DNA from: Octopus vulgaris
Lineage: Eukaryota
Assembly: GCA_951406725.2 (NCBI GenBank)
Contig: OX597831.1
Coordinates: 2,790,001-2,854,000, forward strand
Direction of reading: 5' to 3'
Length of the DNA: 64,000 bases
Part shown: one piece after another, positions 2,560 to 61,560 of the stretch
Position numbering within the stretch: position 1 is the first letter of the stretch
Layout: each line of letters begins with the position of its first letter
Position numbers and translations under genes: made by a program
The notes under the pieces: model-generated
What the model was told of the DNA's origin: nothing
Seen by the model: the letters and a program-made list of their open reading frames with translations, nothing else
Databases searched by the model: none

Positions 2560-3811
2560 CCATCATCATCCTCATCATCATCATTATTATTAATGTGGTG
2601 AGGCGGCAGAATTGTTAGCATGATGGACAAAATGCTGATTCTGAGTTCAAATGTCACCAAGGTTGATTTTTTGCCTTTCATCCTTTTGGGGTCGATAAAA
2701 CTGAAGTAATTGATTAGCCACCACCCCCCACTCCAAAATTTCAGGCCTTGTGCCAATAGTAGAAAGGTTTATTATTATCATTGTTATCATTGTTATTATC
2801 AAGGCAGTGTGCTGGCAGAATCGTTAGTATGCTGAATGAAATGCTTTGTGGAATTTTGTCCGTCTTTATGTTCTGAGTTCAAATCCATCAAGGTTCACTT
2901 TGATTTCCATTATTTGGGGGCCAATAAAATAAGTACCAGTTGAGCACTGGGGTCGATATAATCAACTTAGTCCCTCCCACAAAATTCCAGACCATGTGCT
3001 TATAGTAGAAACGATTATTGTTATTATTATTATTATTATCATTTTTCCTTCTTCTTTCAAATTTGCTTCCATTTCTTGCCGAGTGTCTTCCCGACTCCTA
3101 GGACAAAGAAACTCATAGTATACATTGGTAGGCCATTAAACTAAACTCACTAGTTCGTTAATTTTTTTTTTTTTTTTTTGATAGAAATAAAGTTAAATTA
3201 AAATACATGGGTAGTAATAGTTTTATTATTATTATTATTATTATGATTATTATAATTATTATTATTATTATTATAAGGTGGCGAGCTAGCAGAATCATTA
3301 GTGCACCAGGCGAAGTGCTAAGCAGTATTTCACTTGTCGCTATGTTCTGAGTTCAAATTCTGCCGAGGCCGACTTTGCCTTTCATCCTTTCAGGGTCGAT
3401 TAAATAAGTACCAGTTATGCACTGGGGTTGATGTAATGAGTTTAATCCCCTCTCCCAAGCTGCCCGTGTGACAAAAATTTGGCATCATCATTATTATTAT
3501 AATTATAACAATAATAATTATTATTATTATTAAGGTGACAAAATGGCCAAATCATTATTGTGTCAGGCAAAATGCTTAACGGTATTTCATCTGTCTTCAT
3601 GCTCTGAGTTCAAATGCCACTGGGGTTGACTTGACCTTTCATCCTTTTGGGTTTGATAAAATGAATACCAGTTGAGTACTGGGGTCAATGTAATCGGCTA
3701 TCCCTCTCCCCATAAAATTTCAGGCCTTGTGCCAATTAGTAGAAAGAATTATTATTATTATTATTATCATCATCATCATCATCATCATTATTATTATTAT
3801 TATTATTATTA

Positions 3812-16878: not shown

Positions 16879-17716
16879 GAGTGGCACCCGTGCCAGTGGA
16901 GCACTAAGAGCACCATCCGAGCATGATCGCTGCCAGAACAGCTGACTGGCTTCCGTGCTGGTGGCATATAAAAAGCACCATTCGAGTGGCACCCGTGCCA
17001 GTGGAGCGCTAAGAGCACCATCCAAGCATGATCGCTGCCAGAACAGCTGACTGGCTTCCGTGCTGGTGGCATATAAAAAGCACCATTCGAGTGGCACCCG
17101 TGCCAGTGGAGCGCTAAGAGCACCATCCAAGCATGATCGCTGCCAGAACAGCTGACTGGCTTCCGTGCTGGTGGCATATAAAAGCACCATTCGAGTGGCA
17201 CCCGTGCCAGTGGAGCGCTAAGAGCACCATCCAAGCATGATCGCTGCCAGAACAGCTGACTGGCTTCCGTGCTGGTGGCATATAAAAAGCACCATTCGAG
17301 TGGCACCCGTGCCAGTGGAGCGCTAAGAGCACCATCCAAGCATGATCGCTGCCAGAACAGCTGACTGGCTTCCGTGCTGGTGGCATATAAAAAGCACCAT
17401 TCGAGTGGCACCCGTGCCAGTGGAGCGCTAAGAGCACCATCCAAGCATGATCGCTGCCAGAACAGCTGACTGGCTTCCGTGCTGGTGGCATATAAAAGCA
17501 CCATTCGAGTGGCACCCGTGCCAGTGGAGCGCTAAGAGCACCATCCAAGCATGATCACTGCCAGAACAGCTGACTGGCTTCCGTGCTGGTGGCATATAAA
17601 AAGCACCATTCGAGTGGCACCCATGCCAGTGGAGCGCTAAGAGCACCATCCAAGCATGATCGCCGCCAGAACAGCTGACTGGCTTCCGTGCTGGTGGCAT
17701 ATAAAAAGCACCATTC
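16879..17716 (+). repeat. Tandem array, 8 x 104-105 bp, derived from an RTE 3' UTR
   Basis: Units start at 16879, 16984, 17089, 17193, 17298, 17403, 17507 and 17612; homologous to the reverse complement of about 50735-50850. Confidence 0.9.
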
Positions 17717-24230: not shown

Positions 24231-24573
24231 ACACCAACACTGATACACTCTTCAAAATTTGAGAGAAAATATAAAAGAATATATAATAATTCTGTATAGA
24301 AGTAGTGTAGAAAAGAGGACTGACAGGCGCATTGCAAAGGAATTGAAGTGTCCTGTTGGGGTTTTCTGGGGATGTTCAATTCTCTAAAAACCTCTGACTG
24401 AACTCAGAGTTACTGTCACAGCAAAGGTGATGGCTTTATGTTTGCTTACTGAGGTTGCAGTGAAGGTCACTAAATGGCTTTGGATAAAGAAGACAAACCA
24501 GTGCACATATATAGTATATTGGATAAGTATTATCCCTTAGATGGTTGGATCCACAACCCCTAACTTATTTGGT

Positions 24574-24880: not shown

Positions 24881-24986
24881 TGATATATATATATATATAT
24901 ATAAAAAGTTTTGAATGGTACAGCAATGCACTATTATACAGACAATGGGTTATAAGAACTGTTGTAATTTAGTGATCCATAGTCTG

Positions 24987-25023
24987 ATATGATATTTCAG
25001 AATAATATTCCTTCTTCAGATAT
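24987..25023 (-). ncRNA. Putative minimal hammerhead ribozyme (mirror copy)
   Basis: Exact reverse complement of 25090-25126. Confidence 0.5.
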
Positions 25024-25089
25024 TCTTAGATGGAGTTGCCACTATAATCGGTTTTCTAAAACTGATTATAGCAGCAACTCCATCTAAGA

Positions 25090-25126
25090 ATATCTGAAGA
25101 AGGAATATTATTCTGAAATATCATAT
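25090..25126 (+). ncRNA. Putative minimal hammerhead ribozyme
   Basis: atat-CTGAAGA-aggaat.att.attct-GAAA-t-a-TC-atat; loopless stem III, AUC triplet. Confidence 0.5.
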
Positions 25127-25269
25127 CAGACTATGGATCACTAAATTACAACAGTTCTTATAGCCCATTGTTTGTATAATAGTGCATTGTTGTACCATTC
25201 AAAACTTTTTATTCTTTACAAAAAATACACCATGCTTCAAGCAAACTACAATACTCACATATATACATG

Positions 25270-45544: not shown

Positions 45545-45634
<90 letters not shown>

Positions 45635-45695
45635 AGTTTCTGAGTTTTGCTCATCATCAGTCTAGAGTAGCATGGCTTGCTTCTAAGTCTTGCTC

Positions 45696-48381: not shown

Positions 48382-48684
48382 TGTGTGTGTATATGTTTGT
48401 GTGTCTGTGTTTGTCCCCCTAGCATTGCTTGACAACCGATGCTGGTGTGTTTACGTCCCCGTCACTTAGCGGTTCGGCAAAAGAGACCGATAGAATAAGT
48501 ACTGGGTTTACAAAGAATAAGTCCCGACTAAAGGTGGTGCTCCAGCATGGCCGCAGTCAAATGACTGAAACAAGTAAAAGAGTAAAAGAGTAAAAAGAGT
48601 ATATATATATGTATGTGTATATATATCTGTAAGTCGATGATTGAAAGGAATCTGTTCCTCCATTTTCTTATTTGTATTATGTAT

Positions 48685-49966
48685 ATCATCATCGTTTAAC
48701 GTCCGCTTTCCGCGCTAGCACGGGTTGGACGGTTTGACCGGGTCTGGGAAGCCAGGGGCCGCACCAGGCTCCAGTCTGAATCTGGCAGAGTTTCTACGGC
48801 TGGATGCCCTTCCTAACGCCAACCACTCCGTGAGTGGATTGGGTGCTTTTACGTGCCACCTGCACAGGGGCCGGAGGGTCCGGCATCGTCACGATCGGTT
48901 CGAGCATTTTAACGTGTCAGCGGCACGGGGGCAACGAGGTCCGGGGTACTTTGGGGATCGGGGTACTTTGGGGATCCAGGGTACTTTGGGGATCCGGGGT
49001 ACTTAGAATGGGTAGGGAGTATGTGGAATTGCTGCAGAAAGCAGCCCGGGTCTTTGTAGTCACAGCATATCTCCAGAGATCTCGGTCCTTCGCCATTGCC
49101 TCAGTGAGGCCCAATGCTCTGAGGTCATGCTTGACCACCTCATCCCATGTCTTCCTGGGTCTACCTCTCCCCCTGATACCTTCAACTGTTTGGGAGTGGC
49201 ACTTCTTCACACATCTCTCTTCATCCATCCGCAGCACATGACCATACCATCGCAAGCGTCGCTCTTGCACACCACATCTGATGCTTCTTATATCCAGCAT
49301 TTCTCTCAGGATACTTACACTCTGTTTTGCGTGCACACTGACACTACACATCCAGCGGATCATGCTAGCTTCATTTCTTTCAAGTCTACGCATGTCTTCT
49401 GCAGTCACAGCCCATGTTTCATTACCGTGAAGCATGGCAGTTCGCACACATGCATCATACAATCTACCTTTTGCTCTGAGGGAGAGACCTTTTGTTGCCA
49501 GTAGGGGTAGGAGCTTTCTGAACTTTGCCCAGGCTATTCGTATTCTAGTGGTGATACTCTCTGTGCATCCACCTCCGCTACTAACTTGGTCTCCCAGGTA
49601 GCGGAAACTATCAACTACTTCTAGTTTCTCTCCCTGGAGTGTGATGGAATCTGTTTTCTGAGTGTCTGTTGTGTCTATTGTCCCTGTGCATCTGCCGCAC
49701 ATGAAAGCTATCTTATCTGTTAATTTCCCTTTAATGTTGCTGCACCTCTTATGTGTCCATAACTTACATTGGGTGCATCTTATGGAGTTTCTACCTGTAC
49801 CTTTCCTACAGGTTGAGCAGGGCCACCTACCCGAGGGGATGTGTGCTGAGTACCTCTTGCTGCTTACTAATACTTTGGTCTTTGCTACATTTATTCTAAG
49901 GCCCTTTGATTCCAACCCTTGCTTCCACACCCGAAATTTCTCTTCTAGTTCCGGTAGTGATTCTGC
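48685..49966 (-). mobile_element. RTE-clade LINE, 5'-truncated, with an open C-terminal ORF fragment and 3' UTR
   Basis: ORF 48917-49930(-): KGLRINVAKTKVL, LEVVDSFRYLG, RIRIAWAKF, RRLRWYGHVLRM, RGRGRPRKTW; ends ggacgttaaac(gat)n. Confidence 0.92.
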
Positions 49967-51020
49967 TTATTACTCTTTTACTCTTTCACTTGTTTCAGTC
50001 ATTTGACTGCGGCCATGCTGGAGCACTGCCTTTAGTCGAGCAAATTGACCCTGGGACTTATTCTTTGTAAGCACAGTACTTATTCTATTGGTCTCTTTTG
50101 CCGAACCGCTAAGTGACGGGGACATAAACATACCAGCATCGGTTGTCAAGCAATGCTAGGGGGACAAACACAGACACACAAACACATACACACACACATA
50201 TACATATATACGACAGGCTTCTTTCAGTTTCCGTCTACCAAATCCACTCACAAGTCATTGGTCGGCCCGGGGCTATAGCAGAAGACACTTGCCCAAGATG
50301 CCACGCAGTGGAACTGAACCCGGAACCATGTGGTTGGTTAGCAAGCTACTTACCACACAGCCACTCCTGCGCCTGATATATGCATATTATCATCATCATC
50401 ATCATCATCGTTTAACATCTGCTTTCCATGCTAGCATGGGTTGGACAATTTGACTGAGGACTGGTGAACCAGATGGCTGCACCAGGCTCCAATCTGATCT
50501 TGCAGAATTTCTACAGCTGGATGCTCTTCCTAATACCAACCACTCCAAGAATGTAGTGGGTGCTTTTATGTGCCACTGGCACGAGGGCCAGTCAGGCCGT
50601 ACTGGCAACAGCCACGCTCGAATGGTGCTTTTTACATGCCACCTGCACAGAGGCCAGTCCAGCGGCACTGGCAATGACCTCGCCTGAATGATTTGTTCAC
50701 ATGCCGGTAAGGCAACATTGGTAACGATCACACTCAAATGGTGTTTTTTACGAGCCACTGGCACGGAAGCCAGTTAGCCACTTTGGCAACGATGATGCTC
50801 AGATGGTGCTCTTAGTGCTCCACTAGCACGGATGCCAGTCATCGAATTTGATTTCAATTTCGATTTTATTTGCCTCAACAGGTCTTTGCAAGCAGAGTTT
50901 AGTGTCCAATGAAGGAAAGGTATGCATAAATGGGCTGGTTACACCCCTGGCATAGGCCACGAGGTTATGGTCTCACTTGGGCTTGCCAAGTCTTCTCAAG
51001 CACAGCATAATAAATTAAAT

Positions 51021-51131
51021 TCTCTGAAGAGGCCGTGGGGCATCCTTGTTAATGTCTCATTTATACCTGCCTTATATGGCTTATAGGTTAAATGAGGCAT
51101 GCTTGCCCTTACGGCCGAAACAGCTGTCAGA
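51021..51131 (+). ncRNA. Type-I hammerhead ribozyme, canonical core, extended stem II
   Basis: tct-CTGAAGA-ggccgt..(74 nt, paired)..acggcc-GAAA-c-agct-g-TC-aga; GUC triplet; palindromic acagctgt stem III. Confidence 0.8.
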
Positions 51132-52160
51132 TATGATATAATTATATATTATATTTTATATTTTATATGTCTATTTCATTGTCTAATTATATTTACTATA
51201 TATTTTGTATAATGCCTTTACTGTTATGTAATGGTGTAATAAAGTATTGATCGGGTATCATCTGATGGTTGATATTTGATTGATTTAAGTATGTTTCTCC
51301 ATTTTCTAATTTTGTTGTATATATATATATATATATATATCTTTTATCTTTTACTTGTTTCAATCATTAGACTGTGGCCACGTTGGGGCATTTCCTTGAA
51401 GAATTTTTAGTGAAATGAATTGACCCCAATATTTTATGTTTCAAAATCTGGTCCTTATTCTATTACTCTTCTTTGCTAAATTGTTATGTTATGGGGAACA
51501 TAAACACCCCAACACTGGTTGTCAAATGGTGGTGTAGGACATACAATCACACACACACACATACACACACATGATAGACATCTTTCAGTTTCCATCTTTC
51601 AAATCCACTCACAAAGCTTTGGTTGGCCTGAAGCTATATCAGAAGACACTTACCCAAGGTTCAATGCGGTGAGACTGAATCTGGGACCGTGTGGTTTGGA
51701 AGCAAGCTTCCTACCACACAGCCCTGCCTTATAAATCTTAAATGCCATTTGTGTTTTCCTTTTATACCTATGTCTCACCTAGAACCAAATCCCAGAGTTG
51801 GAATCTATGGTTTAAATTGCATTTTATACTTACATATCTGCAGTATCCTACTAACACGTGATACCATCATTGTTGTTTACCTCACAGTTGCATATCTAGA
51901 CATGCTCGTATATATTTAAATGATAAACTTCTGGAAAGTTTTACAGATTTTTACAGTTCCAGTGATGGATTGGATATGTAGTTTTCGAATTAGCTTTCTC
52001 CTTCTGGTTTTGAGAAGCCTAATTTCTCAAGATTGGTATCTAGGCGGTGTGTTACATATCCCAGGACCCCAATAATTACAGGTATAAACCTGAACTAGTA
52101 ATCTGGATAGAGTAACTGCAGATTTTTCAATAGTTCAGCATAGGTATTCTCTTTTCACTG

Positions 52161-61453: not shown

Positions 61454-61560
61454 GTACTAGCTACAGTGGTACATATTCTAAAATTGGAACGATACAGAGA
61501 AGATTACTATGGCCCCTGCCCAAGGATGACATGCAAATTCGTGAAGCATTGCATATTTTT
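61454..61560 (+). pseudogene. U6: U6 snRNA pseudogene (full length, decayed)
   Basis: aaaattggaacgatacagagaagatt..atggcccctg.caaggatgaca.gcaaattcgtgaagc.tt.catattttt; the ACAGAGA box is intact but the AGC triad reads ACT. Confidence 0.9.

Follow-up and report, generated by a model that had tools for sequence, protein, structure and literature searches.

A type I hammerhead core with an 86-nt stem II in a truncated repeat copy carrying hallmarks of Penelope-like elements

The window, i.e., the whole stretch of 64,000 nt from Octopus vulgaris that was analyzed, contains on its forward strand a hammerhead motif (51021-51131) inside a short repeat copy, which we assign with near certainty to the Penelope-like elements (PLEs). 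The features of this copy, together with two related stretches elsewhere in the window, are as follows:

51007..51317, forward strand: pLTR (3' end), truncated on its 5' side, of a Penelope-like element of Hydra type (subfamily A1), based on relatives at 96-100% identity and on the RT-EN in longer copies
51007..51009, forward strand: ATA microhomology at the 5' junction, which lies in an older repeat whose usual continuation is different (L122 and L276 run past the junction point)
51021..51023, forward strand: stem I 5' strand (TCT), the same in 127 of 133 copies
51024..51030, forward strand: hammerhead core C3-A9 (CUGAAGA; in the DNA CTGAAGA)
51031..51116, forward strand: 86-nt stem II, based on fold and covariation
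51031-51037/51110-51116, 51038-51042/51104-51108, 51052-51063/51089-51100 and 51065-51068/51085-51088, forward strand: predicted helices of stem II
Between 51038-51042/51104-51108 and 51052-51063/51089-51100, forward strand: predicted 9x3 internal loop of stem II; its predicted apical helix is 51069-51071/51078-51080
51117..51128, forward strand: GAAA (51117-51120), palindromic stem III (ACAGCUGU) and GTC/GUC (51126-51128)
After C51128, forward strand: predicted cut site, placed by the hammerhead consensus and not by observation
51129..51131, forward strand: stem I 3' strand (AGA)
51238..51243, forward strand: AATAAA, a possible polyadenylation signal
51318..51340, forward strand: (TA)n target at the short 3' terminus
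48623..48686, forward strand: 64-nt 3' end of the sister subfamily E, longer copies of which carry a hammerhead with a 97-101-nt stem II
24521..24561, forward strand: relative of the twin hairpins of the element tail (see below), ahead of (TA)n

In a first-pass annotation, the motif had been read as a hammerhead with CTGAAGA, GAAA and GTC, and each of these was found exactly where it had been placed, as were the palindromic stem III (ACAGCTGT at 51120-51127) and the 86-nt insert with GGCCGT (51031-51036) opposite ACGGCC (51111-51116). The reading as a hammerhead was right, but its location in the pLTR of a Penelope-like retrotransposon had been missed. With CUGANGA, GAAA and an NUH triplet all present, a canonical type I hammerhead core is supported. 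Rfam returned no hammerhead match for the motif, neither at the gathering score nor at E-values up to 10. The motif region folds at −48.7 kcal/mol (z −5.58), and none of 200 shuffled sequences folded as well. The 86-nt insert between CUGAAGA and GAAA forms a single long interrupted hairpin of approximately 31 pairs; the helices listed for it in the first-pass annotation are those of both the MFE and the centroid structure, and their pair probabilities in the monomer fold are 0.94-1.0. For stems I and III, the pair probability in the monomer is at most 0.01, and the active fold costs 6.7 kcal/mol. As an intermolecular self-duplex, the ACAGCUGU palindrome would form 8 bp at −11.1 kcal/mol. Stem I had been described as being only 3 bp long in this copy. 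The length is correct, but it is not copy-specific, as it was found family-wide in 133 distinct copies, whose stem I 3' strand reads AGA (108), AGT (21), AGC (3) or AGG (1).

The copy is 311 nt long and starts 122 nt upstream of the cut site. Both AATAAA and a terminal (TA)n had been claimed and are present (51238-51243 and 51318-51340), and the “similar 3' end” noticed near 48650-48685 could be reproduced, as 48653-48686 aligns at 82% over 34 nt. A genome search with 51010-51325 yielded 2340 candidates, of which the best 40 of 2340 were scored and showed 96-100% identity. Among the 30 closest loci examined, 28 share further upstream sequence, from 29 nt to more than 1500 nt; the other two, one of which is the window copy, end just short of the core. 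In one close copy, L033, an inverted truncated pLTR is followed by an RT-endonuclease frame interrupted by a single stop, then by a 3' region of 2.6 kb, the hammerhead and (TA)n. L068, a full-length copy of a younger subfamily with a unit length of 5579 nt, consists of a 5' pLTR with hammerhead, an open 947-aa ORF, a 3' pLTR with hammerhead, a 190-nt tail and (TA)n. A hammerhead in both repeats flanking the RT-EN ORF, the mark of a PLE pLTR, was found in L068 and L078. The 14-nt stem II/III junction occurs at 3037 exact sites in the genome (control: 1). Of the first 70 sites examined, 66 are members of the element family, 50 with a complete hammerhead and 16 that are truncated or have core damage, and four are seemingly unrelated. 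In a sample of 100 copies, 65 end in a TA/TG repeat at the short 3' terminus and 34 extend into the tail; inverted and tandem copies of the element occur in the genome as well. The family was also found in contigs of three out of four sequencing runs, from three other organisms, these contigs carrying no end or strand information. The window copy itself is a solitary truncated fragment, most likely inert.

Longer copies encode a telomerase-like RT together with a C-terminal GIY-YIG domain with Hydra-clade motifs in one ORF. Using the predicted fold of the 947-aa ORF (pLDDT 74.5), Foldseek ranks 1-7 were all telomerase RTs; the endonuclease call rests on motifs, not on a fold match. Pfam searches with the element proteins and four homologs, and a PDB sequence search with alignment, gave nothing usable. 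The Hydra clade has been defined by RWK, DKT, a CxCX5C linker, the lack of CCHH, CxxC/CxH around E and N, and insertion into (TA)n (Craig et al., 2021, PMC8557442). The element protein P0003 contains IRWRIF (RWK with K changed to R; RWK is present in 14 of its 21 homologs), SDKTNN and the linker CNCRNKNKC (CxCX5C), and its endonuclease region reads CSLC..E..N..CIH, i.e., CxxC and CxH flanking E and N. There is no CCHH motif, and a single unconserved C lies between the GIY and YIG strands. Insertion occurs into (TA)n as in Hydra; the unit of 5579 nt exceeds the length of generally <3 kb given for this clade, a descriptive property, and is roughly twice as long as usual. Two long Asn-rich inserts of low confidence (residues 505-630 and 714-804 of P0003) make the ORF approximately 250 aa longer than its roughly 700-aa homologs. 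The element has the Hydra-clade motifs, named Hydra sequences having been compared with it by eye, and a Nematis/Neptune assignment was dropped in favor of Hydra after the motif comparison with section 11 of Craig et al.

Hammerheads in PLE pLTRs with a short stem I and a dimer-type stem III are known; the unusual part is the long arm. Stem II measures 85-88 nt in subfamilies A1-A3 and intermediates, approximately 100 nt in subfamily D and 97-101 nt in E (overall 85-104 nt), whereas the published Hydra hammerheads have 12-24 nt (26 Hydra rows, File S2, PMC8557442); the longest stem II in this file, 53 nt, belongs to a plant PLE-X flagged as deviant. The arm is about four times longer than in published relatives. 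The published descriptor allows a stem II of 3-7 bp with a loop of 3-10 nt (Cervera and De la Pena, 2014, PMC4209133) and, because of these limits, would miss the window motif, which is therefore filed as a variant rather than a descriptor member. A literature search for long stem II in PLE hammerheads found none, “long helix II” meaning 6-8 bp there; Lunse et al. (2016) or Arkhipova et al. (2017) may show longer variants. Three short motifs of the element family and one of a second clade described below were not found in the supplement of PMC8557442, in which line breaks could hide a match.

The Hydra-clade C-terminal EN+ PLEs (Hydra-1_Obim, Penelope-2_SK, Penelope-1_NV; PMC8557442) resemble the window family in RW(K/R), DKT, CxCX5C, CxxC/CxH, GIY-YIG and (TA)n as well as in a hammerhead in sense orientation, located 100-200 nt ahead of the 3' end, whose stem I is short and whose stem III is palindromic. 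Apart from stem II, they differ in being generally <3 kb long, whereas the window family reaches 5.58 kb with its 947-aa ORF and a 3' region of 2.2-2.6 kb. Metazoan PLE pLTR hammerheads (PMC4209133) share with the window motif the pLTR location, a 2-5-bp stem I, G10.1-C11.1, the palindromic stem III and predicted dimer activity; unlike them, the window motif has no extra nucleotide after A9. The Poseidon PAc hammerhead (Frangieh et al., 2024, PMC11167929) likewise lies in a pLTR, with an internal RT start defining the “tail” and an AT-rich target, but PAc belongs to another clade, its stem II is short, and its ORF starts inside the hammerhead rather than about 515 nt after the cut as in the window family. 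Finally, animal non-LTR retrozymes (PMC7229834) also have type I hammerheads with a weak palindromic stem III; these are non-coding, form short tandem units and show the canonical contacts between loops 1 and 2, whereas the window motif lies at the end of a coding element.

Via an EN of only approximately 37% identity, a second clade was reached in the same genome; 16 of the 20 loci examined there have an arm of 56-60 nt with a different sequence, and one 93-nt motif was found in addition. The palindrome of this clade is preserved through a two-sided change, ACGATCGT to ACAATTGT. Stem I and the stem III palindrome covary in this clade (L113-L132), and in most copies AATAAA lies within the 3' strand of the long stem II, approximately 50 nt before the short 3' end. 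In L121, a hammerhead with a 93-nt branched, AU-rich stem II is found at sense position 1662, directly past another PLE end.

Covariation among genomic paralogs had been proposed as a check in the first-pass annotation, and stem II passed it, since the long pairing is conserved among paralogs. Two sets were used, one of 24 representatives (500 shuffles plus slid controls) and one of 125 of the 133 distinct copies, lacking arm indels, from a sample biased toward the best hits and the contig-1 sample. In the 24 representatives, 91% of the cells pair, and at four pairs both partners are replaced in several sequences, in each case via a G-U intermediate (e.g., 51055/51097 with U-A, U-G and C-G). 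Cells with a two-sided change number 31, compared to 12.3 in shuffles (0/500 as high) and no more than 18 in slid controls; counted as pairs (5), such changes were not above shuffles (310/500). The compensatory changes amount to about four events in one lineage, all of them transitions. For 17 distal pairs, pairing was kept in 12 of 14 states common to at least three copies and in 6 of 25 rare states (Fisher p = 5e-4). Of the 16 subfamily representatives, 15 have arms that fold with z-scores between −2.9 and −8.4, and the fold is poor in one rare copy (z −1.3); arm identity to the window subfamily drops to 53-64% in D and E. In large subfamilies, pairs close to the core erode: 38 of 125 copies have a C-U mismatch at the fourth pair, stem I measures 2 bp in 25 of 133, and 44 of 133 carry U4C, a known natural variant with lower activity (PMC3088659). 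The distal arm has thus been preserved no worse than the helices supporting catalysis. Based on these results, we consider selection on the arm quite probable.

The claim that this copy is the best candidate for an active ribozyme was not supported: stems I and III are not predicted in the monomer, the copy stands alone, a stem I of 3 bp is found throughout the family, and in most copies reverse transcription passed through uncut sites. Thirty near-full-length copies were collected, of which 29 could be mapped. The whole upstream hammerhead is traversed uncut in 23 of these 29, and none of the 29 has a 5' end within 2 nt of the cut; therefore, the templates were mostly uncut or re-joined. An R2-like 5' processing of full-length RNA at this position was rejected, given the lack of such starts (0/29). 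Along contig 1, 100 consecutive copies were evaluated, and the frequency of 5' ends per nt is 0.46% between 0 and +28 from the cut, 0.11% between +29 and +150, 0.09% between −28 and −1, and 0.30% between −105 and −66, where the 5' arm of stem II lies. With each inverted pair taken as one event, the excess at 0 to +28 comprises 7 of 18 events (p = 0.04, for an interval picked after viewing the data). Among 637 young copies across the genome, five have their 5' end precisely at the cut, with approximately 0.5-0.7 expected from the downstream rate and 2-3 from the local rate, and all five have 1-2-nt microhomology or (TA)n adjacent. The 5'-end excess is a weak hint that fits the cutting of a minority of RNAs just as well as RT stalling at a dimer helix. 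PLE pLTR hammerheads with a 2-5-bp stem I and palindromic stem III have low activity and depend on dimers (PMC4209133; review, PMC6765202), and in the reconstituted Poseidon element the hammerhead cut only with protein, cutting being dispensable for insertion (PMC11167929). On balance, we lean toward a weak, dimer- or protein-assisted cutting of the family RNA.

The strongest reading of the first-pass annotation was that the long arm provides a tertiary contact to stem I and, in this way, a fast monomer ribozyme. The perfect core and the very stable stem II would suit such a ribozyme, as would the approximately fourfold enrichment of 5' ends at 0 to +28 and the young copies starting exactly at the cut (5/637). 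A possible distal, AU-rich extension of stem I also recurs in one register in 14 of 23 flank types. However, its median P is 0.37, it is significant in 3 of 23 flank types only, and it is clear in some older subfamilies but weak in the window subfamily (P = 0.65). No base-paired contact between the arm and the stem I flanks exceeded shuffles, by a method to which non-canonical contacts are invisible, and complementarity of loop and leader (a pseudoknot of the stem II internal loop) was not above shuffles in 16 representatives (P = 0.34-0.99). Further, stems I and III are unformed in the monomer, both sides of the cut are retained in thousands of copies, and a similar excess of 5' ends exists at the 5' arm of stem II, so that structure alone may produce such peaks. 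A fast monomer is, in our view, quite unlikely.

It is also unlikely that the hammerhead is a decaying passenger whose arm derives from a fold-back or inversion, its pairing being retained just weakly or to stabilize the RNA. Inverted joins are frequent in the family, some of them within the arm, stem I measures 2 bp in the youngest subfamily, which also carries a mismatch close to the core, hammerheads may parasitize PLEs (Craig et al., PMC8557442), and Poseidon cleavage is dispensable in vitro (PMC11167929). Against decay speak core letters, palindrome and arm pairing that persist even where arm identity falls to 53-64% (D and E), shared changes that preserve pairs while rare ones break them (p = 5e-4), and a second clade (approximately 37% EN identity) that also has a long arm, of different sequence. 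Spread as a non-autonomous retrozyme via a small circular RNA appears highly improbable. The window motif is a type I hammerhead with a palindromic stem III, and retrozymes derive from PLE pLTRs (bioRxiv 10.64898/2026.07.22.740005), but the window copy is solitary without a short tandem unit, 5' ends are staggered, and at 28 of the 30 closest loci the element extends farther upstream, as far as the RT-EN ORF. The continuity of the hammerhead sequence with the ORF contradicts this reading.

The preferred reading, for which we estimate a probability of about 0.7, is that 51007-51317 is a 5'-truncated, likely inert pLTR copy of a PLE with Hydra-clade motifs, whose type I hammerhead is predicted to cut weakly after C51128 as a dimer or with the element protein, the long arm likely being a structural handle. 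The element RNA would start in the upstream pLTR and continue through the next pLTR and the tail, to be copied at (TA)n by target-primed reverse transcription from one of two internal start points; in the case of the window copy, reverse transcription presumably stopped after 311 nt. In a tandem transcript, the two pLTR hammerheads may pair via the ACAGCUGU palindrome and build the active core, and a minority of RNAs would be cut. For the chemistry, the long arm is likely dispensable. Most probably, it serves the element's own ribonucleoprotein as a handle selected in the parent elements; alternatively, it may act as a folding aid fixing the core-proximal helix in a very AU-rich RNA. A SECIS-like reading of the arm was rejected by eye against the SECIS consensus.

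In subfamilies A, D and E, twin hairpins (GGAT..ATCC, then GGTT..AACCCC) with changed loops close the 190-nt tail beyond the pLTR. Long 3' termini end 9-18 nt past them, and we regard these hairpins as a candidate RT-start signal. In the youngest subfamily, the best partner of the 3' arm within the 518-531 nt from the cut to the start codon is the tail end, where long copies terminate. This pairing reaches −16.2 kcal/mol vs. −21.0 kcal/mol for the own hairpin of the arm, and 10 of 240 shuffled arms were as good, in a post hoc comparison of four near-identical copies. It is weak elsewhere (−7 to −12 kcal/mol in D, −8 to −11 kcal/mol in A1) and is a lead, not a result. The sequence likeness between the 5' arm of stem II and the tail end was not significant in L068 (121 and 177 of 1000 shuffles). 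Stem II could be imagined as a switch, in which the 3' arm would bind its own 5' arm or, alternatively, the tail end, leaving the element protein to choose between cutting and copying; the 5'-end excess would then be a fossil record of PLE hammerhead cleavage in vivo. We hold this speculation to be rather improbable.

PLE hammerheads show weak activity in vitro, and the only element reconstituted so far could dispense with cutting. Thousands of dated copies, a subfamily ladder, intact ORFs and an arm that keeps its pairs while stem I weakens provide a natural mutant set, and its variants (U4C, 2-bp stem I, arms of 56-104 nt) could separate a role in cutting from that of a protein-binding structure. 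Further, standard descriptors and Rfam overlook a large class of animal hammerheads.

A scan of the window kept four hammerhead-like motifs, and only the one at 51021-51131 has a long stem II. Two others lie at 24900-25213, one in each arm of an inverted pair of 131-nt arms (127/131 identical); they are minimal, with cores at 25019 (minus strand) and 25094 (plus strand) and a 14-nt stem II. This structure is likely the inverted end of another PLE family. The remaining motif, at 45630-45670 on the minus strand, is small and lies between microsatellites. It has its core at 45660, a 13-nt stem II and the palindromic ACTAGT, and (CT)n replaces its stem I 3' strand. A full-length U6 snRNA match (97.4 bits) was detected at 61454-61560 (plus strand) and represents a gene or pseudogene. 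At 48917-49966 (minus strand), a stop-free frame of 349 aa resembles the C-terminal part of a LINE RT, which we take to be RTE-like, and is broken by SINE-like repeats. Finally, 16879-17716 comprises a 105-nt tandem array of eight copies (98% matches), which is related to the repeat upstream of 51007-51317.
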